Shown piece after piece: positions 2,224 to 58,247 of a stretch of 64,000 bases of DNA. The notes below the pieces were generated by a model. That model made no database searches. It had not been told where the DNA came from and saw only the letters and a program-made list of their open reading frames with translations. Position 1 is the stretch's first letter. Every line of letters starts with the position of its first letter. This DNA is from a virus, in the IMG/VR virus record IMGVR_UViG_3300035130_000101, positions 6,304 to 70,303 of that record, one strand, 5' to 3'. The translations under genes were made by a program, and so were the position numbers.

Positions 2224-2246
2224 TCTCAATTCAAATTGAAAAAATC
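2224..2246. repeat. palindromic CAATTG-type motif, degenerate copy
   Basis: tctcaattcaaattgaaaaaatc. Overlaps the stop of 2226-3356. Confidence 0.5.
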
Positions 2247-3356
2247 TCTAAACTTTTCAACGATGTAGGATAGGTCATTCAGGTTAAGCCCCTGGTGGCA
2301 GCCAATATATAGCCCGTTTCGATTCACCCAATCTGCCACCGGGTAATCGTCCGGCTCCCACAGCCCCTGGTAACACGGCTGCCGAGTCAGCGGCAGGGCC
2401 AGCCTTGATTCAATGCCGTTCTCTGCCAGGAATCGCCGCAGGTTGTTCCTTGTGCCTTCTTGCCGACAAACGAGCGGGTACATCTGAAAAGCGTGTTCTG
2501 AGTGTGACCGGATAGCCGGCAATTGTAGCCGGTCCTCAAGTGACGCTAAATGCTCTGTCAGATAGGCGGCGTTCTCTTGCCGGTGGCTGATAATTTCCGG
2601 TAGATCGTCCAGTTGCGCCAGACCCAGCGCAGCCTCAAGTTCAGTCATCCTAAAGCTATGGCCCACTCGCTTGAAGTCAAATTTGCGCCCAAGCCAGGTA
2701 TGATCGTAATGCTGGCCAGTCGGTAGCTCATTAAGGTCAATTCCGTGGTTGACCAGTGACCGCATATAGAGTGCATATTCGGGATTGTCGGTAATACCCA
2801 GGCCGCCAACTCCGGTCACAAGGATATGAGCCATATAGGTAGAGAAACAAGAAATGTCACCAAACGAGCCAACTGGATAACCAAAGCGGGTGACAAGCAT
2901 CGCCTCGCAGGAATCCTCTATGACCTTGATCTTGCTGCCGTAGATAGCAAACGGGGCAACCGTCCGGCTCAACTCATCTATGGCGCTGGCTTGTCCAAAG
3001 ATGTGGACCGGGATAATGCACTTGGTATTCTCGTTGATTGCCGCTTCGATCTTGGTGTAGTCAAGATCATAGTACCGGCTATCCACGTCAACCAGTACCG
3101 GCTTTAATCGCAAGTGCAAAACGACGTTGACCGTAGCCACAAACGTAATAGCTGGAATGATAACCTCGCTGCCGTCCGGCCAGCCGTGCATCTCCTTTAG
3201 CGTCTGCAAAGCCACCAAGAGCGATGACGTGCCGCTATTGGACAATACTCCATACTGGCAATTGTGCATCTGAGCAAAGCGGGATTCGAACTCTCTCGAC
3301 ATCTGACCGTAGGACAACCGGCCGGTATCTAAAACCTGATTGACCAATTGTTGCAT
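2226..3356 (-). CDS. DegT/DnrJ/EryC1-family PLP/PMP sugar enzyme with His at the Schiff-base Lys position (ColD/E1-like 3-dehydratase signature)
   Basis: SNSGTSSLLVAL, EDSCEAM, and FSTYMAHILVTGVGG aligned to SFxxxKxxxxGEGG puts His where Lys is expected. Met at 3356 abuts the upstream stop at 3358. Confidence 0.7.
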   Translation of the reverse strand: MQQLVNQVLDTGRLSYGQMSREFESRFAQMHNCQYGVLSNSGTSSLLVALQTLKEMHGWPDGSEVIIPAITFVATVNVVLHLRLKPVLVDVDSRYYDLDYTKIEAAINENTKCIIPVHIFGQASAIDELSRTVAPFAIYGSKIKVIEDSCEAMLVTRFGYPVGSFGDISCFSTYMAHILVTGVGGLGITDNPEYALYMRSLVNHGIDLNELPTGQHYDHTWLGRKFDFKRVGHSFRMTELEAALGLAQLDDLPEIISHRQENAAYLTEHLASLEDRLQLPAIRSHSEHAFQMYPLVCRQEGTRNNLRRFLAENGIESRLALPLTRQPCYQGLWEPDDYPVADWVNRNGLYIGCHQGLNLNDLSYIVEKFRDFFNLN

Positions 3357-3357
3357 T

Positions 3358-4182
3358 TTAGGCGTAGCTTGGAATGTCCCAAGTGCTATTTTGTTCAAGG
3401 CTCTTCTCCTGAAAAGCCCAGGTAGAAGGCCGGAACAGGTTGTCACCCGTCATAATAATTTGTTTGCCGGTATATTCTTGCATAACAGACCTGATGTCAT
3501 TCAGGTTTTTTATCCTGGTTTCAAGTTCTTCATTATCTGATTTCTCAATACCAAATGAGGCCGATTCATAAGCAAGACCGTTACATTCGATATAGCGGAA
3601 CCGTTCAGCAATGAGAAGCCATTCAGCGTCAACGCCTGCGCCGTTTGCTGTTGATTCAGCTACAATTTTTTGAGCCACTGGTCTGGAAAGCCCACGAGAG
3701 CCTGATAGTATATCTACATTGTAGCCAAAAAGACGATTGCACTCCAACTCGGTAATTCTTTGCAATTCGGGGTGGGTATTAAATGCCTGTTCGGTTCGGC
3801 CAAAAACAACGAAATCGTATAGAGGAATGTGATTTACTACACTTCGCAATTCATCGGGATAATTGATTATCCAGTAAAGCACTCTGTCAAAATCGCAATA
3901 ATGAAAATGATCGGCTTGAGTTTGCAATCCGAAATTGATACTCATTCTTCGAGCCTGAGCCAAGCCACCCATAGCTTGGACTTTGGCAGCCTCACCTAGT
4001 AAGTCAATTACCTTACCGTCTGTAGTATCCGTCACGACAACAACTATGCTGTCATATATTCGCTGCAATTCAGGCAGATATAATGAGATAGCGTCGATGA
4101 GCTTTCCATCAGAATCGTGAAGGGCTGATAAAAGAGTGGTCACAATAAAGCCCTTTTTACTACTTCTTTTGTCTGTCCTCAT
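3358..4182 (-). CDS. hypothetical protein, possible GT-A-like glycosyltransferase
   Basis: 274 aa. VVVVTDTTDG and HYCDFDR acidic motifs (weak evidence). Confidence 0.35.
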   Translation of the reverse strand: MRTDKRSSKKGFIVTTLLSALHDSDGKLIDAISLYLPELQRIYDSIVVVVTDTTDGKVIDLLGEAAKVQAMGGLAQARRMSINFGLQTQADHFHYCDFDRVLYWIINYPDELRSVVNHIPLYDFVVFGRTEQAFNTHPELQRITELECNRLFGYNVDILSGSRGLSRPVAQKIVAESTANGAGVDAEWLLIAERFRYIECNGLAYESASFGIEKSDNEELETRIKNLNDIRSVMQEYTGKQIIMTGDNLFRPSTWAFQEKSLEQNSTWDIPSYA

Positions 4183-4331
4183 TTATTACATCGATATAGA
4201 TAGTGATAGTTTATGTAGTTGAATTTAGTATTTTTGATTTCTTCTTTAGAGGGAACGTCTGAAACCCAATCGTCAATCTCTTGCCAATTGTGCCTACACT
4301 TTTTCACGAATAGAGATCTTATCTTGTTCAT
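4179..4331 (-). CDS. small hypothetical protein
   Basis: 50 aa from the Met at 4331 (ATGA overlap with the upstream stop). The ORF track lists a longer 63-aa form. Confidence 0.3.
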   Translation of the reverse strand: MNKIRSLFVKKCRHNWQEIDDWVSDVPSKEEIKNTKFNYINYHYLYRCNK

Positions 4332-4516
4332 AGCGCCCCAATGTATCTGAGTAGCACAATTACGACCCAAATAAAAAATGCTGTAAGTCCCAGGCCGATT
4401 ATCAGGGATATTACTCCACCGACAATTGAGGCTATTTTTATCCGCCTGAAATCTCTATCGAAATCATCTGACATTTTTTGAAACCGTTTATCAAAGTCAC
4501 TCATAATCCAAACCAA
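4328..4516 (-). CDS. small membrane protein
   Basis: 62 aa. Hydrophobic span IASIVGGVISLIIGLGLTAFFIWVVIVLL. Confidence 0.4.
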   Translation of the reverse strand: MVWIMSDFDKRFQKMSDDFDRDFRRIKIASIVGGVISLIIGLGLTAFFIWVVIVLLRYIGAL

Positions 4517-5228
4517 ACCTTTCCTTCAATTCCTGTCTGTCTGTCATCTTCAGTCCCGGTATCCCGCTCCGGTCGTGATAGTTCCATTGCCCCCGTTGGA
4601 TGACGTTGACGTGCCGCAGCGGAGCCTGCCGGGTGCCGAGTACCAACCAATCGGGGTGGTTGTTTACCCTGCCAGCCATCTCTATCTGTTGGGCCGTTTC
4701 ACCGGGGACAAGCACCTCTCTCAGTAAGTCTCGCCGCCACATTCCACCCCAGAGTGACATATGGTACTGGCTATTCGGGTCGCTCTTAATCAGGTCGAGA
4801 TAGCCCAGAGTATCATAGGTATTGTAGCCCCAATAGAACTGATTGTAGCCTTCTGGTGGCGTGCCTGAGTAAAGCCGCTCATCAGCCAGGTCGAACTTGA
4901 GAACGTTGGTATACTGGTGCATATAGTCGTAGATCATCTGGACGGCTTTGGTGTCAACGGGACGGGAAAGAAAATAATCATCGAGCATAAGGATAAAGAC
5001 TTCATCGGCTACGGTGTCCAGTACCTTTATGAGTGCATCGCTCCATTTGTTGGCCGGGTAATTTTTGAATTTGCCGATAGAGTAGAAATTGGAATCACAC
5101 TCAATTCTGGTATAGCCGCAAGTCAGGCGAGTATGCTCAAGTCCGTTAAAATATTTGGTCCACTGATACCAAAAGGGGGGAATAGTCCACTGCTGATTGT
5201 CGCTGGTCATTACAATTACTTGTATCAT
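4497..5228 (-). CDS. hypothetical protein, possible glycosyltransferase
   Basis: 243 aa. FILMLDDYFL is a DxD-like motif (weak). Confidence 0.35.
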   Translation of the reverse strand: MIQVIVMTSDNQQWTIPPFWYQWTKYFNGLEHTRLTCGYTRIECDSNFYSIGKFKNYPANKWSDALIKVLDTVADEVFILMLDDYFLSRPVDTKAVQMIYDYMHQYTNVLKFDLADERLYSGTPPEGYNQFYWGYNTYDTLGYLDLIKSDPNSQYHMSLWGGMWRRDLLREVLVPGETAQQIEMAGRVNNHPDWLVLGTRQAPLRHVNVIQRGQWNYHDRSGIPGLKMTDRQELKERFGLDYE

Positions 5229-5291
5229 CGGTTCCTCTACAAAAAATATCCGGGTCTCTGTATGCCGGATGGGATTAAATGTTGTTATCGG

Positions 5292-6191
5292 TTACGTTCC
5301 TTTGTTTCCTCTATACCATTCTATCGTTTGCCTTAACCCATCTATCAGCGACGTTTCCGGCTGCCACCCTAACAGTGACTTAGCTCGGCTATTATCATAT
5401 AGCCGTCTTTTCTCACCAGTAGGCTTTGTCTTATCCCAGGCGACGGTGCCATCGAAACCGGTCAACTCAACCAATAAATCAACCAACTCAGCAATCGACA
5501 CCTCTTGATTAGACGAGATATTGACCGGCTGACCCACGTCGGTATCAATGAATTTGGACAGGGCCTTTGCCACGTCACCAGCATACAGAAAATCTCTAGT
5601 AGCCTTGCCGTCGCCCCAAATGGTAACAACCTCTTTGGCCTCGATAAACTTACGTACCAAGGCAGCTATGACGTGGCCGCTTTCTCCAAAGTTGTCTCTT
5701 GGACCATACATATTAACCGGAATAGGATACTCAAAAGCCATCCCGTACTGCTCGCGGCAGGCTTCCAGTTGCGCCAGGGCCACCCGCTTACTAATGCCAT
5801 ATGAACCATTAGACTTTTCAGGATAGCCACTCCACAGGTTGCCCTCTTTCATCGGCAATAGCGGAAAGTCAGGATAAGCGCAAACCGAGGAGACAAACAC
5901 GAACTTCCCGACGCCAATCTCAGCACACTTCTGGATAAGCTGAGTATTCATCATCACATTGTCATAATAGATGCTGGCCGGGTTTGCCATATTGTAGGAA
6001 ATGCCGCCGACGTTGGCCGCTAGGTGGTAGACGATATCGGGCTTGACAAAATGATCGAAAAGGGCATCAATATGATCATGTTGCCGCAGGTCATAGGCGC
6101 GGGATAGAACGGGGTAAACGTCGTGGTCACTTAAGAGGGGGTAGAGATGGCTGCCAAGAAAGCCAGCGGAGCCGGTCAGGAGTATCTTCAT
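5292..6191 (-). CDS. NAD(P)-dependent sugar epimerase/reductase, GDP-L-fucose synthase (Fcl/ColC)-like
   Basis: MKILLTGSAGFLGS (GxxGxxG), YGISKR (YxxxK), PVNMYGPRDNF...SGHVIAALV. Met at 6191 overlaps the upstream stop. Confidence 0.7.
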   Translation of the reverse strand: MKILLTGSAGFLGSHLYPLLSDHDVYPVLSRAYDLRQHDHIDALFDHFVKPDIVYHLAANVGGISYNMANPASIYYDNVMMNTQLIQKCAEIGVGKFVFVSSVCAYPDFPLLPMKEGNLWSGYPEKSNGSYGISKRVALAQLEACREQYGMAFEYPIPVNMYGPRDNFGESGHVIAALVRKFIEAKEVVTIWGDGKATRDFLYAGDVAKALSKFIDTDVGQPVNISSNQEVSIAELVDLLVELTGFDGTVAWDKTKPTGEKRRLYDNSRAKSLLGWQPETSLIDGLRQTIEWYRGNKGT

Positions 6192-6370
6192 TGCCGTTTC
6201 CTCATTGCCAGCCATACCTCATCGGCCGTCGGCTTGCGCACTTTTTCCGCCGCCAAGTAGGTTTGCAGAATCCAGACGATATGCGCCGTCTTGCTACGCT
6301 GTGCTTTTTGGGCGCTGGCGGTTAGTTGGGTATTGAGTTTATCGGGTAAGCGTAGGGTGAAGCGGGTCAT
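6188..6370 (-). CDS. ribbon-helix-helix (CopG/Arc-like) DNA-binding protein
   Basis: 60 aa. MTRFTLRLPDKLNTQLTASAQKAQRSKTAHIVWILQTYL fits a beta-strand plus two helices. Confidence 0.5.
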   Translation of the reverse strand: MTRFTLRLPDKLNTQLTASAQKAQRSKTAHIVWILQTYLAAEKVRKPTADEVWLAMRKRQ

Positions 6371-6396
6371 TTTTTCTCAATTTCGGTTGATATTTT
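6371..6396. repeat. palindromic motif, degenerate copy
   Basis: tttttctcaatttcggttgatatttt, between 6397-6696 and the start of 6188-6370. Confidence 0.4.
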
Positions 6397-6680
6397 CTAG
6401 CCGTAGCCGTAGCCGTCGCCGGAGCCGTAGCCGTAGCCGTCGCCGGAGCCGTAGCCGTCGCCGGAGCCGTAGCCGTCGCCGTAGCCGTCGCCGTCGCCGG
6501 AGCCGTAGCCGTCGCCGTAGCCGTCGCCGTAGCCGTAGCCGTAGCCGTCGCCGGAGCCGGAGCCGTAGCCGTCGCCGGAGCCGGAGCCGTAGCCGTCGCC
6601 GGAGCCGGAGCCGTCGCCGGAGCCGTAGCCGTCGCCGTAGCCGTCGCCGGAGCCGGAGCCGTAGCCGTCGCCGTAGCTAA
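6397..6680. repeat. GC-rich tandem hexamer-based repeat (GCCGTA/GCCGTC/GCCGGA units)
   Basis: Visible run of gccgtagccgtcgccggagcc units. Encodes (GDGYGS)n on the minus strand. Confidence 0.85.
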
Positions 6681-6696
6681 TCAATGCGCTGTCCAC
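6397..6696 (-). CDS. low-complexity (GDGYGS)n Gly/Asp/Tyr/Ser repeat protein
   Basis: GTG start with GAGGAGG 7 nt upstream. After 7 N-terminal residues the product contains only G, D, Y and S. Confidence 0.45.
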   Translation of the reverse strand: MDSALISYGDGYGSGSGDGYGDGYGSGDGSGSGDGYGSGSGDGYGSGSGDGYGYGYGDGYGDGYGSGDGDGYGDGYGSGDGYGSGDGYGYGSGDGYGYG

Positions 6697-6971: not shown

Positions 6972-7000
6972 TGTTCACTCCCTTTCTATCTGTCTGATTA

Positions 7001-7020
7001 TTTCAATTGCGGTTAATATT
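7001..7020. repeat. palindromic motif, degenerate copy
   Basis: tttcaattgcggttaatatt, in the 5' leader between promoter 7044-7073 and the ATG at 6971. Confidence 0.4.
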
Positions 7021-7043
7021 TCTATAGGAAACAAGCCTATCTC

Positions 7044-7073
7044 ATTATACACCACCTTGACACCATTTGTCAA
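7044..7073 (-). promoter_or_regulatory. sigma70-type promoter
   Basis: Minus strand TTGACA-18 nt-TATAAT, upstream of 6681-6971. Confidence 0.65.
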
Positions 7074-7184: not shown

Positions 7185-7841
7185 TCACAGGTGGTTACGT
7201 GTGTCAACACATCTCATATACCTGGCAATTGTGCCGGACTTGAGACCGGTTAGCTCGCGCACTACTGCCGGTCCGTCATCCTCTAATCGGTGAACAATGC
7301 CAGACTGATAGATCGTCATCGCTGTTACCGGCTTAGTGATTTCCTGTTCCCTAGCCACCCTTTTGATATGGTTAGTCAGCGTAGACACGGACGTATGTCC
7401 ACCTCTGGACACTGACTTTTTAACAATATCTCCCGGTCTGGTCAAGTTATGATAAGCCTCTCTGGCTAAAATCTGATAAAGTAATGGTAAGCCAGTTATA
7501 ACCGCCTTTACCTGCCCCCGGCTTATAGTCTCTACCAGTTTTGTTTTGTGCAGAGTTGATACCATCCGAACTTCGACGGGCTTTCCAATGTCATCAAAAA
7601 ACATACTAATCGCCCGCTTCGCTTGGTTGGTAGTAGATCGGGAGTATTCGCCGGGCCGGACCATCCAGGCCAAATACTCGTCAATATGCCATTGCTCAAG
7701 CTCGGATAATTTGATCGGAGCGTGAAATTTGGCAAGCTCGATTATCCAGCGGGAATAGAGCCGGACGGTATTTTTGGACAGGCCCGCAAAGGCGCTGTCT
7801 AATTTTTGTTGTAACTCATTTGATGGTTTCATATTTGACAT
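7185..7841 (-). CDS. short tyrosine-recombinase/integrase-like protein (catalytic motifs partly degenerate)
   Basis: 218 aa. N-terminal SAM-like core-binding pattern (VRLYSRWIIELAKF...WHIDEYLAWM...NQAKRAISMFF). NLTRPGDIV resembles box I Arg and IARYM a candidate Tyr, but the HxxR region is not recognisable. Confidence 0.45.
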   Translation of the reverse strand: MSNMKPSNELQQKLDSAFAGLSKNTVRLYSRWIIELAKFHAPIKLSELEQWHIDEYLAWMVRPGEYSRSTTNQAKRAISMFFDDIGKPVEVRMVSTLHKTKLVETISRGQVKAVITGLPLLYQILAREAYHNLTRPGDIVKKSVSRGGHTSVSTLTNHIKRVAREQEITKPVTAMTIYQSGIVHRLEDDGPAVVRELTGLKSGTIARYMRCVDTRNHL

Positions 7842-7862
7842 TATAGCACGTTTTGGTATAAT
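7835..7862 (+). promoter_or_regulatory. sigma70-type promoter (extended -10)
   Basis: TTGACA-16 nt-TATAAT with TGg immediately upstream of the -10. Drives the small-ORF array. Confidence 0.7.
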
Positions 7863-9000: not shown

Positions 9001-9420
9001 ATGGGTACGTATTGGGATGGGAATGGAAAGTATCAAGAATGGTCAGACAAACTCGAAGATCAAGTCCCTATGTCTGGCCGGGCTGAAAAATTGCACATTG
9101 ATCTAGTGCGTAATATCAGCAATTGTTATTATGACCACTTCAACAATGGTAACTGCAATTGGGGGAACAAAAGCGAACAATTTGCACACATCGAATACCA
9201 CGCCGATGCACTTCACGAAGCAGCACTGGCCGAAGGCATTGAAAATATCCGTAGTTTACTGTCGTCTATTCGTTCCCCGTTGGACGCTGATTTTGCAAAA
9301 AATTTGTTTTACTGCGGCGAAGATGCAGAGGACTTGGAAGAAAATTGGGAAAAGCTGGCAGATATTATTATCGGTTGGGCGTGGAAGGTTGAGCAGTCTT
9401 TACCAGTACCAGCCGCCTAA
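9001..9420 (+). CDS. hypothetical protein
   Basis: 139 aa. Bracketed by the 9-bp inverted repeat GTTAGGCGG (8967-8975) / CCGCCTAAC (9413-9421); the latter contains the stop codon. Confidence 0.55.
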   Translation: MGTYWDGNGKYQEWSDKLEDQVPMSGRAEKLHIDLVRNISNCYYDHFNNGNCNWGNKSEQFAHIEYHADALHEAALAEGIENIRSLLSSIRSPLDADFAKNLFYCGEDAEDLEENWEKLADIIIGWAWKVEQSLPVPAA

Positions 9421-9567
9421 CAAAAAATTGTACCCGAATTGCTACTGTTCGTTTCAACAACGGCCACACGCTGGCAATCTCGGTTTAAATTGCGGCTCTT
9501 AACGCCAAGCCGCAATCGGGTAAATTTAGGGCGTTAGCTGGCTCATTGCCAGTGGAGGCGAGTGGAA

Positions 9568-10061: not shown

Positions 10062-10277
10062 GTGGCAAAAATATATGGTGTGACAAAAATACATTTTCTG
10101 GCAGAGCCATTAGTGATAATTGGCGAGAAAAAGATGACGTTGGAAATGGCAGAACGTTGGCTTGCCAGAGAACACGGTGAAAATGCAGAAGTAGACGCAA
10201 TCAATTGCACATCAATATATGATGACCGTGATTATTATATTTTGGGGATTGTAGAAAATAGCAACCAATCCGCCTAA
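10062..10277 (+). CDS. hypothetical small protein
   Basis: 71 aa, GTG start. Bracketed by GTTAGGCGG (10048-10056) / CCGCCTAAC (10270-10278). Confidence 0.45.
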   Translation: MAKIYGVTKIHFLAEPLVIIGEKKMTLEMAERWLAREHGENAEVDAINCTSIYDDRDYYILGIVENSNQSA

Positions 10278-10320
10278 CAAATCGTTCGTAGCGAATTGCT
10301 AACCTTGTTTTTTATTGTGG
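10267..10320 (+). repeat. spacer element family 1, copy 1
   Basis: cctaacaaatcgttcgtagcgaattgctaaccttgttttttattgtggtcggtt. Close match to 11387-11440. Confidence 0.7.
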
Positions 10321-10403: not shown

Positions 10404-10690
10404 TGAAAAATCCACGGTGGTTAATGGTAACAAGAAAAATCACAGATGGTTTAGTGCTGGTTTGGTCGCCGGAATGCAATGAGCAATTATGGGCGTTAGG
10501 TAACAGGCCAGGATATAAACATCACAATTGCGCTATCTGTAATAGAGAAATTCCAAAAAATACAGAAAAAATGTACAGACCTGTGGGAAATCCACGCAAT
10601 AGAATGTGCAGAATTTGCCAAGACTGCGCTTTGATGAACCACCCACCTAACAAACATTTGCAGCCCGACCCCGACAGCCGCCGCAAATGA
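10404..10690 (+). CDS. Cys-rich (zinc-binding?) small protein
   Basis: ATG at 10404 after AGGTG. CAIC...CRICQDC. Confidence 0.45.
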
Positions 10691-11026: not shown

Positions 11027-11033
11027 CAGCCAT

Positions 11034-11136
11034 ATAACAAACATTTGCAGCCGACCGCCCAGGCTGCGGATAACGAAGATCAAGCGCAATCATAGTCACA
11101 TTTCACCGTGGGCGGCGGCTGAAATGTGGCGTTACT
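11034..11136 (+). repeat. spacer hairpin element family 2, copy 2
   Basis: Starts ATAACAAACATTTGCAGCC and ends GCGGCTGAAATGTGGCGTTA (a 20-mer identical to 10741-10760). Confidence 0.7.
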
Positions 11137-11140: not shown

Positions 11141-11386
11141 ATGCAAAACAAGCAAAAATATTCAGCGCGTCAAATTATACCACCTCAGTTAACAGATACC
11201 GATAAAGAGCGATTTATCACAAATAGCAAGGCTCATATGTTGTTCGACCTGGCTATAAAACTGGCTGACAAAGGCGACGAACTTACAATTGAGGTAAAAT
11301 TTGAGGAATATAAAACCAAACACTATGACACACCCTGGCTGAATGAAAGCCGGGTTGATATGGTTGCGTGGGTAACAACCCCGTAA
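11141..11386 (+). CDS. hypothetical small protein
   Basis: ATG at 11141 (the ORF track starts at an alternative codon, 11126). Confidence 0.45.
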   Translation: MQNKQKYSARQIIPPQLTDTDKERFITNSKAHMLFDLAIKLADKGDELTIEVKFEEYKTKHYDTPWLNESRVDMVAWVTTP

Positions 11387-11440
11387 CCTAACAAATCATT
11401 CAAGCGGAATTGCTGATCTTGGTTTTTATTGCGTCAGTTA
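11387..11440 (+). repeat. spacer element family 1, copy 2
   Basis: cctaacaaatcattcaagcggaattgctgatcttggtttttattgcgtcagtt. Confidence 0.7.
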
Positions 11441-14778: not shown

Positions 14779-16481
14779 CCTGCCTGAGTCCAGCCCAGTT
14801 CATTCCACCATAACCCCGTCGAGCCGTCCTGCTTGGCCTTGTTCTGTTCTGGCCCTGGCACTTCGCCTGTCACCTGATTTTGCTTGGTGAAAAGCTCGCT
14901 CTTGACAAACGAGGCCAGCGACGCTTCCGGGATGGAAGCCGCCTGTTTTTCAAGCCGCTCTTTGTCCGTTTTCTCCAACTCCTTGAGCCGGCTATCAATG
15001 ACCTGGACGCTCTCGCCAATGGCCCTGATAGAGGTGGTCAAAGCCCGGACTGCCTCGACCATATCCGCCGAAGGCTGCTCCGCTTGAGCCGGGGCAGGTT
15101 GCTCTTTGGCCTGTTCTACCGGTGGCGTCTTTTCTTTGCTCTCCGTTCCGGCGTCGCTGGCTTGCTTGGCCCGCTGCGCCAGCTCATCTTCCATTTGTTT
15201 TACCCGCTCCTCGCCAAAGGCTGCAATGAACTCCTCTCGCTTGTGAGCCGGTATCTCTTTTACATCGTTCATACCGTTACTCTCCTTACTGATTAAATGA
15301 AACGCTAAACTGTTAGCTGCCGCCTTTGTCGGCAGGAACGTAATTTCCCTACTACGCCGGCGAGTGATAATCGACTTGTCCTTATCATCTTCCCGGCGCA
15401 CCTCTTTGCGAGGCATACCGTGTGACATCCCCCGCCAGTTTGCTTTGATGACACCTTCAGCCGCCCACCCCTTATCTTTGTCGAACGTGCCGCCGGCGAT
15501 GCAAAAGCCGGACTTTTCGTCATAGGCGTGATAGTGGGTTTTCCCGACCGGATAGGGATAATGCCACAGCCAGACTTCCGGCATCGGCCACTCGCCGCTA
15601 TTTACCGCCTGGTCGAACTCTTTGTGAGCGTCGGAGGAGATGATCTCAGGCGGGTTGTCGTTGTCACGGTAATTGTTGGTATATGCGCCAAGCCAGTGGT
15701 ATTGCCCGTCCACCTCTTTCCAGATGTGAGAGAAGGTATTTTTTTCTAACTGCGGTTGAGATTTCTCTTTCAGGCCGAATATCTCTTTGGTTTTGGCAAT
15801 GGCCCGGTCGATAATCGTTTCCTGCTCGACTTCCTTTTGGGTGTTTTCCAAGATGCGCCGGGCTTTGGCTTGCAACGAGGCTTTCTTGTCAGCGGAGATG
15901 CCCTTCATCTGAGGGATACGGGCGATTGCATTGCGTATATGGGGCAGATCAACTTTGCCGGAAGCGTCTTTGTAGGGCAAGTGGCGACAGGTGCGGGGCT
16001 TGGTTTTGTTTTCGCTGTCCTTTTCGCCGCAGCCGGATTCAACGTAGAGGAAGCTGGAGTCAGGTAAGTTGTTGACGAAAGCGGTTGACCAGACGGCTTT
16101 CAAAACGTCGTCACGATCATCAACCTCTTTATCGTCGCTTTCATCTATCTCTTTCAAATCACCACGAGCCACACCCATTCGGTTAATAAACTCCCCGGCC
16201 AGATTAGCCAGAGCGCCGGGCTTGTCCTCTACCATATCGGACATCATAATATTTGAGGCCAGGTCCCTGAAATACTCGGTCGCCTTGCGTACATCGGCTT
16301 CCATCTCCCGGCTTTCCATATAGGCGTCAAGCTCTTCAAACGAAGTAATACCGGGCGGAATCCACATCGGTTCATCATACATCTTAGTAACGTCGGCCTC
16401 TTTGGTTTCCTGGCCGGCGTCTTTGTTTTCGGTATCTTCGGCTTTGTCTGCGGTTTTTGGGTCGTCTGCTTTGTTGCCCAT
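14766..16481 (-). CDS. putative prohead protease / scaffold fusion protein
   Basis: 571 aa. Acidic N-terminus. The central SDAH...GMSHGM...REITFLPTKAAANSLA resembles HK97-type (U35/S78) prohead protease blocks. C-terminus is coiled-coil and Lys/Glu-rich. Confidence 0.5.
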   Translation of the reverse strand: MGNKADDPKTADKAEDTENKDAGQETKEADVTKMYDEPMWIPPGITSFEELDAYMESREMEADVRKATEYFRDLASNIMMSDMVEDKPGALANLAGEFINRMGVARGDLKEIDESDDKEVDDRDDVLKAVWSTAFVNNLPDSSFLYVESGCGEKDSENKTKPRTCRHLPYKDASGKVDLPHIRNAIARIPQMKGISADKKASLQAKARRILENTQKEVEQETIIDRAIAKTKEIFGLKEKSQPQLEKNTFSHIWKEVDGQYHWLGAYTNNYRDNDNPPEIISSDAHKEFDQAVNSGEWPMPEVWLWHYPYPVGKTHYHAYDEKSGFCIAGGTFDKDKGWAAEGVIKANWRGMSHGMPRKEVRREDDKDKSIITRRRSREITFLPTKAAANSLAFHLISKESNGMNDVKEIPAHKREEFIAAFGEERVKQMEDELAQRAKQASDAGTESKEKTPPVEQAKEQPAPAQAEQPSADMVEAVRALTTSIRAIGESVQVIDSRLKELEKTDKERLEKQAASIPEASLASFVKSELFTKQNQVTGEVPGPEQNKAKQDGSTGLWWNELGWTQAGWRQ

Positions 16482-16492
16482 TGCACCACCTT

Positions 16493-16530
16493 AAAAACAA
16501 AAAGGGCTTAAGTCGGATTGACTTAAGCCC
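16493..16530 (-). terminator. strong rho-independent terminator immediately upstream of the head-gene RBS
   Basis: Minus strand GGGCTTAAGTC-aatcc-GACTTAAGCCC followed by TTTTTGTTTTT, then AAGGTGG and the ATG at 16481. Confidence 0.75.
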
Positions 16531-16763
16531 CAGGTAAGAGAGCGGTTTATTGAGCGGGCCTCTCGCCCGCTTGGAGTATCATCGGTCTGACTCTGGCAGC
16601 CTGCCCGGCCCAGGCTATCGGGCAACTTATGGACGCATTTTCAAAAAAATATATCCTTGTCTAATCGGGGTTTTGATTATGGCTCAATCCCCCGCTAAAG
16701 CCGGGTGAGTAGCCAAGTGTCTAGGATAGCACCCCAGGGACGTTAGCTTGTCCACTCTCCACA

Positions 16764-16792
16764 ATTATATCAAAATAACTGTGCTATGTCAA
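16764..16792 (-). promoter_or_regulatory. sigma70-type promoter (consensus)
   Basis: Minus strand TTGACA-17 nt-TATAAT. The -35 overlaps the stop of 16789-17133. Confidence 0.7.
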
Positions 16793-18512: not shown

Positions 18513-18527
18513 ATCTACCTACCTCAC

Positions 18528-18554
18528 AAAATCTCAATTGCGATTGAAAAAATT
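18528..18554. repeat. palindromic motif copy
   Basis: aaaatctcaattgcgattgaaaaaatt. Confidence 0.7.
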
Positions 18555-24157: not shown

Positions 24158-24180
24158 ACTTCTTAATGCAAACTAACTTT

Positions 24181-24204
24181 TCTTAATTGCAATTGAGATT
24201 TTTT
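24181..24204. repeat. palindromic motif copy
   Basis: tcttaattgcaattgagatttttt. Encodes the ...NLNCN-stop end of the upstream ORF. Confidence 0.7.
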
Positions 24205-26726: not shown

Positions 26727-26751
26727 TTTTTTTTCAATAGTGATTGAGAAA
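26727..26751. repeat. palindromic motif, variant copy
   Basis: ttttttttcaatagtgattgagaaa, about 25 nt upstream of the ATG at 26702. Confidence 0.5.
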
Positions 26752-27055
26752 TTATAGGATTTCTAACTTTTTACGAGTAAGCCCGGCGCAACCATCACGC
26801 CGGGCTTGCCTTACACACAAGATTAGCACATTGACATACTATTATGCAAAACCGTTTTCCCCAACGGTTCAACTAGAACTCATTATCTCATCAGCACTCC
26901 TTTCTGTCATACCCACGTTTGCCGTTATCGCCGTCGTTGCACTACCTTGATTCCTACTCCTTAGCCATTCGGTCATCGAGCCAGGGACGGCGGTTGCTTC
27001 ACTCGCCGGCATAGTCCTATACCACTAGGTTTACCCCTGCCGGTGAGGTTAGTCA

Positions 27056-27292: not shown

Positions 27293-27303
27293 AGTTCAAC
27301 TCC

Positions 27304-27331
27304 TTTTTCTCAATTGCAATTAAGATTTTTT
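27304..27331. repeat. palindromic motif copy
   Basis: tttttctcaattgcaattaagatttttt. Confidence 0.7.
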
Positions 27332-31149: not shown

Positions 31150-31162
31150 TTTGGTTCACTCC

Positions 31163-31187
31163 TTTTTTTGAATTGCAATTGAAATAA
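31163..31187. repeat. palindromic motif copy
   Basis: tttttttgaattgcaattgaaataa. Confidence 0.7.
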
Positions 31188-32243
31188 TTATGAGTTGATT
31201 TGCCACATCTCCGGCGCTCGATGCGATGGGCCGTCAAAATCGAGCATCTTCCAAGATACTTCCATTACCCTATCAAGCACCGCCCGGCCAAGATAATCCT
31301 CAAGCGCCAAACGGCCCGGCGCTTTCTCCGACATTTCGCCCGGTCCGCAGTTGAATGTCAAGATAGTTGGCATCTCAGCATTGTACCGGTAATTCAGGAC
31401 AGAATAGAGCGTTGACTTCACCCACTCGGACGGCTGCCGCTTGTCTAGGTCGTCTATCACAATGACAAGGCCCTGCTGCAACTCTCGGATGACATCGGCC
31501 TCGGTCTCCTGGCTAATCCGGTTGCCGTCCTCGTCTTTGTCCCACGTACCTTGCAGCCGCTTGAGATATTCGGGCCATACCCGGAAATAGCAATCACGAA
31601 AGCCCCGGTCTATAGCCTCGTGAATGACGGCAGCGGCAAGGTGGCTTTTGCCGGTCCCAACGTTGCCATACATAATCAGCCAGTTATCCCGCTCCCGCTT
31701 GCCGGAAAAGAGCATATCAACGTAAGCCGTCACCTTTTGGCGCAGTTGTTCACTCTCCGGCCAATCGTGGCGAATAGCGTAGCTGTCAAATGTGGCTTGG
31801 CGCAACCAACCAATCAGGCCAGCTTTTGTCAGATGAGCTTCGTACAGGTCGCGCTGTATCTTGTCGGCTTCACGCTCTTTCAGGCGCTTGGTTCGCTCAA
31901 GTGAAGTTCGCCCACGGTCGCAGCCGCAATAGTCCGGCCATATCAGGACGGGCCGAACCACGCCAATAACCTCTTGCTCGATAATGCGAGGAATGAGAAG
32001 GGAGCCGCAAAACTTGCACTTGAGGCCGACGCGCTGGGCGATCTCTTCAGACGATAGCTGTACCAGTTCACGCCGGTAATGTCGCCACGCCTGCCGCCAC
32101 TGTTCGTCTTGGCGCTCGGCTTCCCGGCGCATAGCAGCATAGCGGAGCCGCTCTTGCCGGTCCTCAACCTCTTGCTTTGAAGGCTGCCGTTGCCCTCTTT
32201 GCGATTTCGTCATCTGCTGGTGTAGCCACTTGTTTACGTCCAT
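31188..32243 (-). CDS. DnaC/IstB-like AAA+ helicase loader with N-terminal zinc finger
   Basis: GNVGTGKSHLAAAV (Walker A), LVIVIDDLD (Walker B), CKFC...CGC. Confidence 0.65.
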   Translation of the reverse strand: MDVNKWLHQQMTKSQRGQRQPSKQEVEDRQERLRYAAMRREAERQDEQWRQAWRHYRRELVQLSSEEIAQRVGLKCKFCGSLLIPRIIEQEVIGVVRPVLIWPDYCGCDRGRTSLERTKRLKEREADKIQRDLYEAHLTKAGLIGWLRQATFDSYAIRHDWPESEQLRQKVTAYVDMLFSGKRERDNWLIMYGNVGTGKSHLAAAVIHEAIDRGFRDCYFRVWPEYLKRLQGTWDKDEDGNRISQETEADVIRELQQGLVIVIDDLDKRQPSEWVKSTLYSVLNYRYNAEMPTILTFNCGPGEMSEKAPGRLALEDYLGRAVLDRVMEVSWKMLDFDGPSHRAPEMWQINS

Positions 32244-33063: not shown

Positions 33064-33080
33064 ATTATCCATTAAAGAAA

Positions 33081-33105
33081 CCTCAATTGCGATTGAAATA
33101 AAAAA
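33081..33105. repeat. palindromic motif copy
   Basis: cctcaattgcgattgaaataaaaaa, between terminator 33101-33193 and the replication genes. Confidence 0.7.
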
Positions 33106-34579: not shown

Positions 34580-34801
34580 TTACCTCAGCCACACGCTAAA
34601 CAGGTCTTTGATCAGTGACCAGTTGTCATTAAGGTCCTGACTATCCAACCCGGCCGCGTGGAGCTTGCCGATCAACGTACCGGTTGGCTGCTCGCCGGCT
34701 TTGATCGCTTGCCAGGCATCAGCGGTGTGTTCATCCATAATGCGACGGATGATAGCACCCTTGTCAGATTTTTTTGAATTGCAATTGAAAGAAAGCGTCA
34801 T
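34580..34801 (-). CDS. hypothetical small protein
   Basis: Met at 34801 has a GGAG SD and an ATGA overlap with the upstream stop, so the palindromic motif then falls in codons 4-9. Met at 34738 is the alternative. Confidence 0.4.
   Translation of the reverse strand: MTLSFNCNSKKSDKGAIIRRIMDEHTADAWQAIKAGEQPTGTLIGKLHAAGLDSQDLNDNWSLIKDLFSVWLR
34769..34794. repeat. palindromic motif copy
   Basis: tttttttgaattgcaattgaaagaaa. Probably inside the first codons of 34580-34801. Confidence 0.65.
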
Positions 34802-36387: not shown

Positions 36388-36583
36388 TCCGACCAGAGAC
36401 GAAATCTTATTGAGAGAAGAACTCTACCGGCTGGCTTACCAGCACCGGGCCAGTCACATCGACCAGCGCCGGCAATCTATCTTTAAGCGAGATGGTCACG
36501 GCTGGCAAGAGTTGAAAGTAGGCGAAGTGGAATGGAAGCGGTGGCATCAGGCTTACCCGCCGATGTCAACAGAAGTGGTTTAA
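36380..36583 (+). CDS. hypothetical small protein
   Basis: 67 aa, overlapping the previous stop. Confidence 0.45.
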   Translation: MANPTRDEILLREELYRLAYQHRASHIDQRRQSIFKRDGHGWQELKVGEVEWKRWHQAYPPMSTEVV

Positions 36584-36606
36584 ATTCAATCGCAATTCAA
36601 AAAAAA
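36582..36606. repeat. palindromic motif copy
   Basis: aaattcaatcgcaattcaaaaaaaa, between a stop codon and the SD of 36613. Confidence 0.65.
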
Positions 36607-37719: not shown

Positions 37720-37750
37720 AAAAAATCTCAATCGTAATTGAGATTTTTTA
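37720..37750. repeat. palindromic motif copy (13-bp potential stem)
   Basis: aaaaaatctcaatcgtaattgagatttttta, 12 bp upstream of the -35 at 37762. Confidence 0.7.
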
Positions 37751-39069: not shown

Positions 39070-39420
39070 ATGACCGATCTAATAACCGTCACCCAGGCCG
39101 CCAAACTGCTTGGCGTGAGTTATTACACCGTTACCAACAAGTATATCAAGCGTGGCCTACTCCCCGCCGAACTGGTCAACACCGGCCAGGGCAAGGGCCA
39201 CACTCGTTACCAGATCAAACGGGCCGATGTCGAGGCATTGAAGGAACGCCGGGAAAGCGGCGAGGCGGCTTTCCGGCCCGGCCCAACGGGAGAGAATAAG
39301 GGCAAGACGCTGATGTACCTGCCCAGGCCGGCGGCGTGGGGAGAATGGATTAAGACGGCGCTTGAGCCAGAGGAGAGGGTTGCCGCGTTGGAAGCGGCAG
39401 CGAGGGCGAAAGAGAAGTAA
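39070..39420 (+). CDS. MerR/excisionase-type HTH DNA-binding protein
   Basis: ITVTQAAKLLGVSYYTVTNKYIKRGLL. AAGGAG SD before the ATG at 39070. Confidence 0.5.
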   Translation: MTDLITVTQAAKLLGVSYYTVTNKYIKRGLLPAELVNTGQGKGHTRYQIKRADVEALKERRESGEAAFRPGPTGENKGKTLMYLPRPAAWGEWIKTALEPEERVAALEAAARAKEK

Positions 39421-39446
39421 AAATCTCAACCGCAATTCAAAAAATA
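39421..39446. repeat. palindromic motif copy
   Basis: aaatctcaaccgcaattcaaaaaata, immediately after the stop at 39420 and before terminator 39450-39470. Confidence 0.6.
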
Positions 39447-40242: not shown

Positions 40243-40378
40243 ACTTTTTCCTCATTTCCTCAATATACTTGTCTATTGCCTGCCTGATATGCTCTGCAAT
40301 GCTTTTACCGGTACGCTCTTTTAGAGCCTTCAGGATTGCCCTTTGTTCCTTCGTCAAATAAATTTCAGTCCGTATCAT
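40226..40378 (-). CDS. ribbon-helix-helix (CopG-like) protein (unlisted 50-aa ORF)
   Basis: Manual translation MIRTEIYLTKEQRAILKALKERTGKSIAEHIRQAIDKYIEEMRKKYDNGN. GGAGGA SD. Overlaps the HNH start. Confidence 0.5.
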   Translation of the reverse strand: MIRTEIYLTKEQRAILKALKERTGKSIAEHIRQAIDKYIEEMRKKYDNGN

Positions 40379-43094: not shown

Positions 43095-43127
43095 AATAAA
43101 AAAGGCCCGGTTATCCGGGCCAAAAAA
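43095..43127 (-). terminator. terminator after the tail operon
   Basis: GGCCCGG-ttat-CCGGGCC flanked by A-runs (T-runs on the minus strand). Confidence 0.65.
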
Positions 43128-43150
43128 TATCAATTGCAATTGAGAAAATT
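43122..43150. repeat. palindromic motif copy
   Basis: aaaaaatatcaattgcaattgagaaaatt, abutting the stop of 43149-43688, followed by the GC hairpin terminator. Confidence 0.7.
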
Positions 43151-43688: not shown

Positions 43689-44812
43689 AGCGCCGCCTCG
43701 TAATCAAGCCTGGCCTGTACTGTCTCTTCGCCGTTATCGTTAAGCGAAATAGTGACGGCCCGAATAATGGTATTGAATTGGCGATTGAGATACTTGGCCC
43801 CGACCTTATAGCCAAAGTCCCAATCGATGCCATAGCGAGTGCCTTCGGTATCGACCGGCGTCGCTCCAAAACGGATACGAGGCCGTCCGGCTGTCAACCT
43901 GTCCCTGGCCGCTTCCCTCACGCCATTGTCGGTCGTCTGGTTGCGAGCGTCGGCAAAACCTTCTGACCTGGCCCAGATCGAGGCGCTATACCGGTCGCTG
44001 TCATAAACCTGTTGGATAGTACGCAACTCGCCTTCGCCCTGGCCGCCGGCGTAGATGTAGTTCTCTTCATCTGTGTAATCATACTCAAGCGCCGGTTCAC
44101 GCATATTGCCGCTTTGCTGGTCGAACGTTACACGGTCGCTCACGTCCTGCCCTGGCTGCCCTGTGTAAGTCCTGAATTGGAACGTGATACTGTTAGCCGC
44201 CACCACATTCGGTACGATGTCAAAAAATACCTCTGTCCCGGCTTCCCTGGCCGCATTACCTAAAGTCGCTAAAACTCCCTGCCCGGCCGTGGTCAAGAGC
44301 TTGTCAAAAGCAAAAGCCTTCGTGATAGACGGTCCCAAGCTCAGGTCGGCGTCAATGCTGAGATTGCTCCATACTCTCGTACCAGCATCCGGCGTCGGGT
44401 CAACCCCATCGGCAATGGATTCGGTCACAACCTCTTTCATCATATCGTCGGCATTGTCGGTTTTGTCGGCTTGCGCTGCACCGGAATAGGCCGCTACAAT
44501 CCGCCGCCGTAGTAGGTCGTTGACATCCGGGCCACCAAATTCTACTATCTGGTCACTGCCGCGAGTGCTAAACTTCCAGCGTCGGACAAAATAGACGCGC
44601 CATAGGCTGAGAGCGCCGCCGGTCGGTTGCCGCCATATCTGTATCATCCGATCCGGGGCAATCAAGTCCGGGTCGAATGACAGCGGCATCTGGAGATTGC
44701 AATAGGCAATACCGTTGACGACACGGGAAGCGTCAAGAGAGATGACTTGACTAAGGGGAGCAAGGCGGAGGCCACTGTCATTTGTTAGCCAAAGTTCATA
44801 AGATGCTGTCAT
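43685..44812 (-). CDS. putative distal tail / baseplate protein
   Basis: 375 aa, downstream of the TMP and the 841-aa protein. Assigned by synteny only. Confidence 0.35.
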   Translation of the reverse strand: MTASYELWLTNDSGLRLAPLSQVISLDASRVVNGIAYCNLQMPLSFDPDLIAPDRMIQIWRQPTGGALSLWRVYFVRRWKFSTRGSDQIVEFGGPDVNDLLRRRIVAAYSGAAQADKTDNADDMMKEVVTESIADGVDPTPDAGTRVWSNLSIDADLSLGPSITKAFAFDKLLTTAGQGVLATLGNAAREAGTEVFFDIVPNVVAANSITFQFRTYTGQPGQDVSDRVTFDQQSGNMREPALEYDYTDEENYIYAGGQGEGELRTIQQVYDSDRYSASIWARSEGFADARNQTTDNGVREAARDRLTAGRPRIRFGATPVDTEGTRYGIDWDFGYKVGAKYLNRQFNTIIRAVTISLNDNGEETVQARLDYEAAL

Positions 44813-44840
44813 AAATTTTCAACTGCGATTGAAAAAATTA
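44813..44840. repeat. palindromic motif copy filling a whole intergenic gap
   Basis: aaattttcaactgcgattgaaaaaatta. Spans from the stop at 44838-44840 to the ATG at 44812. Confidence 0.65.
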
Positions 44841-47363: not shown

Positions 47364-47369
47364 TTCTGA

Positions 47370-47396
47370 TTTCTTTCAATTGCAATTGATACTTTT
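47370..47396. repeat. palindromic motif copy
   Basis: tttctttcaattgcaattgatactttt, between the TMP stop and the ATG at 47363. Confidence 0.7.
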
Positions 47397-52358: not shown

Positions 52359-52387
52359 TTGACAAGTGAACACTTATCTGCTATAAT
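52359..52387 (+). promoter_or_regulatory. sigma70-type promoter (consensus)
   Basis: GGACTATTGACA-17 nt-TATAAT. Confidence 0.75.
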
Positions 52388-53625: not shown

Positions 53626-53654
53626 TTGACACCAATAATCATTTGTGATATAAT
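53626..53654 (+). promoter_or_regulatory. sigma70-type promoter (consensus) of island cassette 2
   Basis: TTGACA-17 nt-TATAAT. Confidence 0.75.
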
Positions 53655-57558: not shown

Positions 57559-57835
57559 TTTCTACCTCCATACTCCTGTATAAGGCTACCAATGGGCGCT
57601 TGATAGCCGTCAGGATAATGCTATCGAGGCCGCTCCGTGAATACTGAATATCATTTTTGCTGATAAGTTTATTTTCAACCAGGCCGTTGTGTATCTGCCT
57701 GATAATATCTTCCCAGTCCAGTTGCCGGATGTCTGGCGGGTCAGCTCTGATACCCGGCGCGGTATCAAGGTCGTTATCCTTGATATGATAGAGATGCTTG
57801 TAGCCGTCGCTGTCAATTCGCTCGATTAGTCTCAT
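57551..57835 (-). CDS. hypothetical protein (head-tail joining region?)
   Basis: 94 aa, overlapping neighbouring genes. Confidence 0.4.
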   Translation of the reverse strand: MRLIERIDSDGYKHLYHIKDNDLDTAPGIRADPPDIRQLDWEDIIRQIHNGLVENKLISKNDIQYSRSGLDSIILTAIKRPLVALYRSMEVEND

Positions 57836-58206
57836 ACACGCCTATGCCCTATCACGTTCAACTTACCGATAACCCCTTGTCCACCCGCTGCCAACGTGAT
57901 AATCAACTGGACGCCTTGAGATGACATCTCTGGTGAAAATGGGATAAAACCAGGACCGCTTGCAGTAATATCTATTTCGAAAAAGATATGACCTGCCCCG
58001 TCATCTATCTGCAAATTGCCACCTGTTGGCGTATCATTATACGACCAGGCCACACCCTCGATAATATGCCTGCCAGCCCCAACCGGAGCAGGATAGACAA
58101 TCTGCACCGCCTCATCTGCACTGCCAATGCTTCTATTCTCTGTTTCAAACTGTACCGGTTCCAAAGCTACCGGTGATGATGGGCCAGATGTTATGCCTCT
58201 TGCCAT
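57832..58206 (-). CDS. hypothetical protein
   Basis: 124 aa. Palindromic motif copy lies upstream. Confidence 0.4.
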   Translation of the reverse strand: MARGITSGPSSPVALEPVQFETENRSIGSADEAVQIVYPAPVGAGRHIIEGVAWSYNDTPTGGNLQIDDGAGHIFFEIDITASGPGFIPFSPEMSSQGVQLIITLAAGGQGVIGKLNVIGHRRV

Positions 58207-58218
58207 TTTTTACGCTCC

Positions 58219-58247
58219 AAAAAATCTTAATTGCAATTGAGATTTTA
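58219..58247. repeat. palindromic motif copy
   Basis: aaaaaatcttaattgcaattgagatttta, between the stop at 58245 and the ATG at 58206. Confidence 0.7.

Follow-up and report, generated by a model that had tools for sequence, protein, structure and literature searches.

Why should one short palindrome, enclosed by A/T tracts, stand at gene boundary after gene boundary of a single phage genome? The question is raised by a 64,000-nucleotide stretch of viral DNA, positions 6,304 to 70,303 of the IMG/VR record IMGVR_UViG_3300035130_000101 (hereafter the window, whose coordinates are used unless a relative is named), which makes up most of the genome of an uncultured siphophage and carries 17 copies of such an element. 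The reading that we favour, at a probability of roughly 40%, is that a dimeric regulator, acting across the genome in the manner of the mycobacteriophage stoperators, binds the motif as double-stranded DNA, and that the copies also serve as crossover points.

A preliminary description of this DNA reported at least 17 copies at gene boundaries, and both the count and the positions that it gave hold. With up to three mismatches allowed, the consensus CTCAATTGCAATTGAG has 13 matches in the window against 0.41 expected, with none of 100 shuffles reaching 13, and a palindromic weight matrix, used to collect the copies, returns 17 AT-flanked copies and one weak match in coding sequence. The cores start at 2225, 6376, 7002, 18533, 24182, 26733, 27309, 31168, 33082, 34774, 36585, 37727, 39425, 43129, 44818, 47375, and 58226, and are spread over the early, replication, packaging, tail, and sugar-gene operons. 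When every copy is turned to run with its flanking genes, the element reads W5-T-yTCAATyGCAATTGAr-A-W5, ~28 bp in which an 18-bp near-palindrome (T-yTCAATyGCAATTGAr-A) lies between two A/T tracts. Core positions 2, 4, 5, 12, 13, and 15 are invariant, the flanking T at position 0 and A at position 17 are kept in 16 of the 17 copies, and the flanks are 92.6% A/T, compared with 54% in other intergenic DNA (p = 5e-34).

The cores lie mostly outside genes and close to stop codons. On an approximate gene map, in which 11% of the window is non-coding, 13 of the 17 cores have no more than 5 nt inside a called gene, as do only 10.5% of all 16-mers, and a 14th (7002) overlaps only one open reading frame (ORF), considered spurious because it covers a perfect promoter. 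Thirteen copies begin 0–8 nt past the upstream stop codon or contain the stop, which lies inside the core at 2225, 24182, and 27309, and 11 end 5–30 nt ahead of the next start codon, with the core-to-start distance ranging overall from 5 to more than 100 nt. Several copies share a directional cassette (TAA-TTTT-motif-A-run-GGAG), with TAATTTT on the left and AAAAAGGAGT on the right. Two placements singled out in the preliminary description are confirmed, with one 25-nt gap consisting wholly of motif (44813-44837) and one copy lying just inside a coding start (34774, in codons 4–9).

The core is also asymmetric relative to gene direction (permutation p ~0.002), with the copies on the + strand flipped compared with those on the − strand. 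Position 7 is C in nine of 17 copies and the mirror change, G at position 10, occurs in none; position 14 is C or A in six copies, and the mirror position 3 is never G. GC skew predicts the opposite of this polarity at positions 7 and 14, and RNA stability gives no explanation of it. Shared descent of the directional cassette may account for part of the polarity; position 7 differs, T or C, between the copy at 27309 and its ortholog at 6207 of the relative L196, and descent therefore cannot explain it fully. By our own reading of the sequences, both variants (C at position 7; C or A at position 14) abolish a sense-strand TTG.

RNA folding, terminators and promoters

The motif is not a conserved RNA hairpin, nor is it an intrinsic terminator. 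When the 40-nt sense RNA of each copy was folded and compared with shuffles, only that of 37727 proved stable, forming a 13-bp hairpin followed by U6 (−11.8 kcal/mol, z = −4.8), with the other 16 ranging from 0 to −6 kcal/mol (z −1.6 to +1.2), indistinguishable from shuffles, and the minimum-energy fold lacking the motif hairpin in seven copies. The AU-rich hairpin of up to 13 bp that the flanks had been proposed to form is thus present at 37727 and fails elsewhere, where Watson-Crick complementarity of the flanks is at the level expected by chance for A/T-only sequence, 6/6 pairing being found at 37727 alone. The stabilising C3-G14 pair is broken without compensation in six copies, positions 1 and 16 show no covariation, and a search of Rfam with the motif returned no match. 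Selection on the sense strand for or against a hairpin was considered and rejected, sense and antisense RNAs being equally weak. The longest stem, 13 bp in one copy, is shorter than the ~20-bp or longer double-stranded hairpin of a T7-type RNase III site. It is sequence, and not structure, that is conserved, which supports the earlier remark that primary-sequence conservation goes beyond what a generic terminator needs.

A terminator scan requiring at least three G-C pairs calls none of the 17 copies. A T-run follows the core in ~5 of 17, most copies having a sense-strand A-run that leads into the Shine-Dalgarno sequence, and the motif as a rule shows neither the stable hairpin nor the U-tract directly after it that define an intrinsic terminator. 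The evident terminators of the phage are several, strong, and GC-rich. Two of them follow the copies at 39425 and 43129, as the preliminary description had it, within 10 nt, and argue against a promoter role for these copies.

Neither is the motif a promoter as such. Identity with a sigma-70 promoter was rejected for most copies, a usable −10 being present at only three of 17, and the TATAAT-like strings to the left of the core are mostly TAA stop codons and T-runs. The 3′ half falls in the position of a −35 at 26733 and 34774, and weakly at 2225, the first two with a TG-extended −10 from which a nearly leaderless mRNA would start; on the antisense side the motif occupies the −35 position in none of the 17 copies.

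Relatives and mosaic junctions

Conservation extends to close relatives. In L037, whose terminase is 86% identical to that of the window over the 257 residues available, a perfect copy occupies the orthologous spot upstream of a non-homologous small terminase, in a ~40-nt island of identity. The small terminase of L037 led to the L196/L197 locus, with terminase-portal DNA 85% identical to the window. L196 carries the motif at all five junctions orthologous to 31168, 27309, 26733, 24182, and 18533 (71 of 80 core positions identical). At 24182 a ~40-nt motif island is common to the window, L037, and L196, between unrelated flanks, and is followed in L196 by TTGAGA-15-TGaTATAAT; at 26733 the motif and the −10 are kept in L196 and the spacer has diverged.

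The motif was not found in eight sets of loci from more distant relatives, with the motif-less relatives including L049, L050, L192/L193, and L198 (terminase or small terminase 73–83% identical), L199 (small terminase 88% identical to that of L037), and L069, L070/L071, and L194 (Gp37 69–75% identical). Being kept in L037 and L196 and absent from these other relatives, the motif therefore belongs to a narrow, mosaic lineage. Analogous repeat families were searched for in the motif-less relatives and none was found. The 62-kb relative L022 (terminase 48% identical) has four near-exact TGTTGCTGTAGCAACA palindromes at 3847, 9205, 13125, and 18074; this repeat was rejected as an analogous family, two of the four copies lying inside coding sequences.

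Further afield, exact-motif scans of IMG/VR with three patterns gave single matches without AT flanks and no motif-bearing relative, with the exception of L015, discussed below. Scanning the genomes of 185,579 species for TYTCAATTGCAATTGARA gave, among the matches listed (at least 120 loci), only isolated single matches in unrelated taxa, with no family resembling host repetitive extragenic palindromic (REP) elements seen among them. Six TYTCAATTGCAATTGARA matches in L155 are coding repeats in two ~715-aa proteins. The L015 match, at 322-420, is the same as 2730-2830 of L195 (IMGVR_UViG_3300025115_000023), an unrelated phage, and consists of four tandem CAATTG(C/T)AATTG palindromes, so that the palindrome also occurs as a clustered array of the protein-bound kind. 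This array lies ~170–270 nt upstream of the gene for a 160-aa helix-turn-helix (HTH) protein, with a 504-aa, large-terminase-looking ORF next to it, and may serve in packaging or in the control of a late operon. The small terminase of L015/L195 was compared with the small-terminase-like protein of the window and shares only 14 aa of similarity (E = 0.009), so no shared specificity can be claimed.

Comparison of junctions shows the motif present where relatives have none. The 841-aa tail gene and the Gp37 gene have conserved ends, the former closing with ITAYMLWRDSFSSY and its stop and the latter opening with MTASYELWLTN..., and at this junction the genes overlap as TAATG in L069 and L070 (...TAC TAATG...) and abut in L194, with the window reading ACTAA[TTTTTTCAATCGCAGTTGAAAATTT]ATGACA. 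The genes encoding proteins of 208 aa and 114 aa likewise overlap in L050 and are separated by a 40-nt motif spacer in the window. At the site of 18533, L196 has an extra 289-aa gene, absent from the window, with the full motif ahead of the gene and, downstream of it, ...GGTAGA joined to CAATTGATATTTT and then the same ribosome-binding region as in the window; with the full motif before and CAATTGATATTTT after, the insertion therefore lies between two copies of a 13-nt direct repeat, which begins exactly at the palindrome centre. Compared with L196, the gene upstream of 31168 and the gene downstream of 27309 are unrelated, and both neighbours of 24182 are unrelated across three genomes, with the motif block kept each time. 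The homology breakpoint between the window and L196 lies no more than 25 nt away at four of the five orthologous sites.

Recombination at module boundaries, one of the roles first proposed for the motif, accordingly has comparative support in the islands between unrelated flanks, the half-motif-flanked gene indel, and the TAATG insertions. Mosaic joints fall at gene boundaries anyway, however, and by a rough count from one comparison ~6 of 26 mosaic block edges lie near a motif, against ~4 expected over all gene boundaries, a difference that is not significant.

Candidate readings of the palindrome

The 18-bp palindrome, its non-complementary A/T flanks, the absence of RNA structure, the conservation of operator-like placements in the sister phage L196, and the retention of the motif through mosaic exchange together point to a double-stranded DNA site with a dimeric reader. 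A dimeric, sequence-specific DNA-binding protein, encoded by the phage or by its host, would occupy the ~28-bp site. It could act as at an operator where the motif overlaps a −35 (26733 and 34774) or sits just downstream of a promoter (7002, at ~+20 to +35), with 37727, 19 nt upstream of a −35, also placed like an operator, and inside long operons bound copies would serve as roadblocks or “punctuation”, as stoperators do. Because the same 20–28 nt recur at many gene boundaries, the copies would also be crossover points for the gain, loss, and swapping of genes between related phages. Among the four roles put forward in the preliminary description, the binding site of a dimeric regulator fits best, although no binder was found for it.

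Candidate binders encoded in the window are three ribbon-helix-helix (RHH) type proteins (6188-6370, 40226-40378, and 42841-43011), two HTH_17 proteins (33647-33874 and 39070-39420), the small-terminase-like protein (23609-24151), and a truncated recombinase homolog resembling IntI4, to which the products of 26475-26702 and of 35300-35524 may be added, the latter HTH-like by eye only and without a Pfam match. To our knowledge, the consensus sites of IHF, FNR, the ARG box, SoxR, and CtrA do not fit the motif. Several points weigh against a regulator site. The two candidates that could be checked by co-occurrence with the motif are both weakened, with the RHH protein of 6188-6370 having a 48% identical homolog in L049, whose 18-kb locus is motif-less, and the integrase-like 218-aa protein (7185-7841, −) having a 76% identical homolog in L200, an 82-kb IMG/VR contig, with no motif in 20 kb and no analogous repeat nearby. 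In the PDB the 218-aa protein has a single relative, the integron integrase IntI4 (E = 2.7e-5). The phage protein is missing ~115 residues and the catalytic HxxR motif, and is encoded between divergent consensus promoters; truncated and without catalytic residues, it was set aside both as binder and as recombinase. Polarity with transcription is not predicted by a symmetric homodimer, most copies hug the upstream stop codon, a position that a roadblock does not need, and the two copies just before strong terminators would seem to add a redundant block. Finally, the region of divergent consensus promoters at 35.5-35.7 kb, read as the lysis-lysogeny switch, holds no copy.

The motif may instead be primarily a recombination element, a possibility that we hold to be real though doubtful, either as a boundary sequence used by general or phage recombinases or as the core site of a site-specific recombinase, with 11-bp arms around the 6-bp centre TYGCAA and genes moving as cassettes. 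The gapless junctions of L069, L070, L194, and L050 opposite motif spacers in the window, the direct repeat CAATTGATATTTT starting from the palindrome centre around the L196 289-aa gene, the islands between unrelated flanks in three genomes, the breakpoints within 25 nt, and the shared directional cassette are what such an element would leave behind, and an asymmetric centre (TCGCAA) would confer polarity on the site. The 11-6-11 architecture of a tyrosine-recombinase core is compatible with the motif, the outer arm positions being merely A/T-rich and not sequence-specific. Against this stand the insignificant excess of mosaic edges near the motif, at boundaries where breakpoints sit in any case, and the failure to find an active recombinase, the 218-aa protein being catalytically incomplete and its L200 homolog having no motif nearby; exchange at repeats may be a by-product of any dispersed repeat, and the copies overlapping conserved promoters are left unexplained. 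The more specific idea of a cassette system, in which genes with their “motif + RBS” (ribosome-binding site) are excised and inserted at the palindrome centre in an integron-like or self-propagating manner, we consider rather improbable; were it true, it would explain the TAATG insertions, the L196 half-motif repeat, the islands at mosaic joints, and the polarity of TYGCAA at once. An RNA-level element, acting in a weakly structured sense transcript as a translational repressor or enhancer site (RegA-like or S1 standby-site-like) or as an intercistronic endoribonuclease site, is unlikely, and is retained in view of the polarity and of how near the copies lie to stop and start codons. All copies are in transcribed intergenic RNA that is AU-rich and unstructured, oriented with transcription, 11 of them ending shortly before a start codon; the copies at 6376, 44818, and 47375 take up nearly the whole initiation region, without a good Shine-Dalgarno sequence, and both strand-specific variants remove, as we read them, a sense-strand TTG. 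A single-stranded RNA site, on the other hand, gives no rationale for an 18-bp palindromic consensus, the hairpin is unstable and not maintained by covariation, the start codon may be as near as 5 nt or more than 100 nt away, and two copies lie in 3′ untranslated regions (UTRs) before terminators. The RNA operator or processing site of the preliminary description is weakened.

Very little probability attaches to the idea that the copies adjust transcription from one cistron to the next as weak, AU-rich intrinsic terminators or attenuators. The hairpin and U6 of 37727 have this form, and the extended stem of 58226 is paired in part; a stable stem is missing from the remaining 15 copies, most copies carry an A-run and not a U-run on the sense strand, the terminator scan calls no copy, and the terminators evident in this phage are GC-rich, two of them directly after the motif. 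Least probable of all is a cluster of CAATTG targets for the N6/N4 DNA methyltransferase of the phage (27871-29352) or a cognate restriction system. A perfect copy does contain two CAATTG palindromes, but both are kept in only two of 17 copies, and conservation reaches beyond the hexamer to 18 bp and the A/T tracts. CAATTG occurs 41 times in the window, compared with 24.8 +/- 4.7 in shuffles, an excess roughly explained by the motif copies themselves, the hexamer being at about its expected frequency outside them.

Individual copies, neighbouring features and known dispersed repeats

The copies, given here as whole elements with their cores in brackets, lie on the − strand unless marked (+). 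At 2219..2246 (2225-2240) the 3′ half of the core contains the TGA of the DegT-type aminotransferase gene and also forms a weak −35 (TTGAGA-16-TATGCT). The copy at 6370..6397 (6376-6391) is separated by 5 nt both from the TAG of the GDGYGS-repeat gene before it and from the ATG of a 60-aa RHH-like gene after it, and that at 6996..7023 (7002-7017) lies in a 5′ UTR, 30 nt before a DUF6948 gene and downstream of the perfect promoter 7073-7044. At 18527..18554 (18533-18548) the order is TAA, 4 nt, core, 20 nt, and ATG, with the L196 ortholog at 14988 and the half-motif-flanked insertion of L196 mapping here, and at 24176..24203 (24182-24197) the upstream stop is inside the core and the small-terminase-like gene begins 30 nt downstream. 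In the copy at 26727..26754 (26733-26748) the 3′ half is the −35 (TTGAAA) of a promoter with a TG-extended −10 (TAAAAT) that would yield a leaderless mRNA, an arrangement kept in L196 at 6754. A C3-to-T variant in the copy at 27303..27330 (27309-27324) makes the TAA stop of the upstream gene, with the Shine-Dalgarno sequence AAGGAG 4 nt past the core and the ortholog at L196 6207.

Further along, 31162..31189 (31168-31183) has TAA, 4 nt, core, and AAAAAGGAG, its ortholog at L196 2207 following an unrelated upstream gene, and 33076..33103 (33082-33097) lies in the replication-operon leader, 75 nt before the replisome-organiser gene and downstream of two perfect promoters and a terminator-like hairpin. 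The copy at 34768..34795 (34774-34789) occupies codons 4–9 of a small ORF whose ATG overlaps the upstream TGA, its 3′ half being the −35 (TTCAAA) of a TG-extended TATCAT. At 36579..36606 (36585-36600, +) TAA, 1 nt, core, and AAAAAAGGAG precede the start codon. The sole copy with a stable 13-bp hairpin and U-run, 37721..37748 (37727-37742, +), lies upstream of the perfect promoter 37762-37790, and 39419..39446 (39425-39440, +) falls 4 nt after the TAA of an HTH_17 gene with a GC-rich bidirectional terminator directly after it. TAA, 4 nt, and core at 43123..43150 (43129-43144) are followed by a 7-bp all-GC terminator (43121-43104), beyond which is a promoter at 43076. The copy at 44812..44839 (44818-44833) occupies all of the 25 nt that separate the 841-aa tail gene from the Sipho_Gp37 gene, that at 47369..47396 (47375-47390) begins 6 nt after the TGA of the tape-measure gene and 11 nt before the ATG of the 841-aa gene, and at 58220..58247 (58226-58241) TAA, 3 nt, and core are followed by ATTTTTTGGAG and ATG. 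The weak motif-like 16-mer at 15745..15760 (−), inside the coding sequence of a 571-aa protein, is probably not a functional copy; the homologous gene in L196 holds a similar weak match (18094).

A second repeat family also starting at stop codons, CCTAACAAA...GAATTGCT...TTTTTATTG and CCTAACAAACATTTGCAGCC, occurs at 9410-9460, 10268-10317, 10640-10665, 11027-11052, and 11382-11431 (+). It is confined to the + strand block of 9.4-11.5 kb, where the main motif has no copy, and L200 has strings related to it beside its homolog of the integrase-like gene.

Ordinary transcription signals in the window include ten perfect (12/12) sigma-70 consensus promoters (TTGACA, 16–18 nt, TATAAT), several with an upstream TG, a set that is unusually clean for a phage. 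They lie at 7044-7073, 16764-16792, 33324-33352, 33369-33397, and 35546-35574 on the − strand, and at 7835-7862, 35602-35630, 37762-37790, 52359-52387, and 53626-53654 on the + strand. A consensus promoter followed by a long leader, which may be a leader or a small RNA, precedes the gene for a 564–571-aa protein in L049 (11744-11975), L050 (6548-6754), and the window (~16482-16792), and in the relatives this leader contains a terminator-like hairpin that is conserved (TTTTACCTGGGGC.GAGTCAAT..GACT...GCCCCTTTTTT).

The genome encodes a large terminase, a portal-sized protein, a tape-measure protein, and a Sipho_Gp37 tail protein, together with a DnaD-like replisome organiser, a DnaC-like loader, a helicase, and the N6/N4 methyltransferase noted above. 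No DNA-level similarity of the window to sequenced phages was found, the top terminase match among 50,697 phage records being 28% identical across one third of the protein, and no tRNA was found in the window. In a protein collection, the terminase and the Gp37 tail protein are recorded from a 70.3-kb contig. Sugar-modification genes (NAD epimerase, DegT aminotransferase, FkbM methyltransferase, and GT1/GT2 glycosyltransferases) lie at 100-6200 and 62400-63971. Tandem repeats are present in the gene at 6397-6696 (−), which consists nearly entirely of 12- and 18-nt units coding for GDGYGS, in the 841-aa tail gene (four 141-nt repeats, 45372-46076), and in the gene for a 298-aa protein (129-nt repeats encoding HPSRNxRLRDxTFR units, 60264-60808). 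Iteron-like GTTTCTTGAAACG repeats at 32525-32594 and 33035-33081, within and just upstream of the replisome-organiser gene, probably mark the replication origin.

Dispersed repeats of several kinds are known with which the motif can be compared. Phage phiC31 of Streptomyces has conserved inverted repeats (CIRs), a 17-bp palindromic repressor site found at many dispersed intergenic loci, with sequence and host both unrelated to the present case. REP elements are short imperfect palindromes placed right after stop codons inside operons, and form stable stem-loops with a GTAG head, in hundreds of chromosomal copies mobilised by REP-associated tyrosine transposases (RAYTs); the motif has no stable fold and no GTAG, and no Y1 transposase domain was found in the window.

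The stoperators of cluster A mycobacteriophages offer a parallel to such a regulator site, L5 and Bxb1 having 24–34 intergenic repressor sites (PMC3029335). Like the motif, the sites of L5 gp71 and Bxb1 gp69 are tens of copies of a short sequence scattered along the genome, mostly in short intergenic spaces and oriented with transcription, and the same site is also an operator at a promoter (PMC3029335). The agreement covers copy number, placement, and orientation, and does not extend to the 13-bp asymmetry: in stoperators a monomeric HTH repressor binds an asymmetric 13-bp site, whereas the motif is an 18-bp palindrome with A/T tracts that hugs stop codons. The extended start-associated sequences (ESAS) that cluster K phages carry at some of their gene starts are 17-bp inverted repeats of imperfect symmetry, and related phages share them (PMC3203893). 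Their departures from symmetry do not support RNA pairing, and Pope et al. favour DNA-binding sites, the function being unknown (PMC3203893); the DNA-site reading of the present motif uses the same argument (PMC3203893). ESAS differ in consisting of two repeats with a 4–13-bp spacer, tied to a 13-bp start-associated sequence (SAS) that holds the RBS, and in being confined to the non-structural half of the genome, whereas the motif is a single compact palindrome that keeps to the upstream stop codon and is found in the tail module too. It has no fixed position a few nt before the start that includes the RBS, its tight distance being to the upstream stop.

In the T1-like phages TLS, T1, and Stevie, 21–22-nt repeats of no known function occur in 16–21 copies, mostly intergenic and oriented with transcription (PMC11447400, PMC4319613). 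These resemble the motif in number and placement but are asymmetric direct repeats (aaATAGCACnnnTTGnTAAAA), ~76 nt upstream of starts and unrelated in sequence. The boundary sequences of lambdoid phages, as cited in PMC3029335, are short stretches conserved where genes meet, and are proposed to direct homologous recombination between modules, an idea that the motif islands and the half-motif-flanked indel fit. Such sequences are not, as a rule, a single motif repeated over and over, and most mosaic joints lack them, whereas here one palindrome recurs 17 times. The motif differs from these known dispersed repeats in being a compact, A/T-flanked palindrome tied to stop codons, in occurring in structural and early operons alike, and in bearing signatures of insertion and indel.

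Such a system makes it possible to test by what route a dispersed set of operators arises and whether phage mosaicism is driven by short boundary sequences, and, if a binder were found, the motif and its binder would make a portable part for regulation or insulation. Repeats set between genes throughout the genome are known from a few phage groups, their function unsolved apart from that of the stoperators; the present case, from an uncultured lineage, contributes a variant that is compact and palindromic and for which the comparative evidence is unusually clear.

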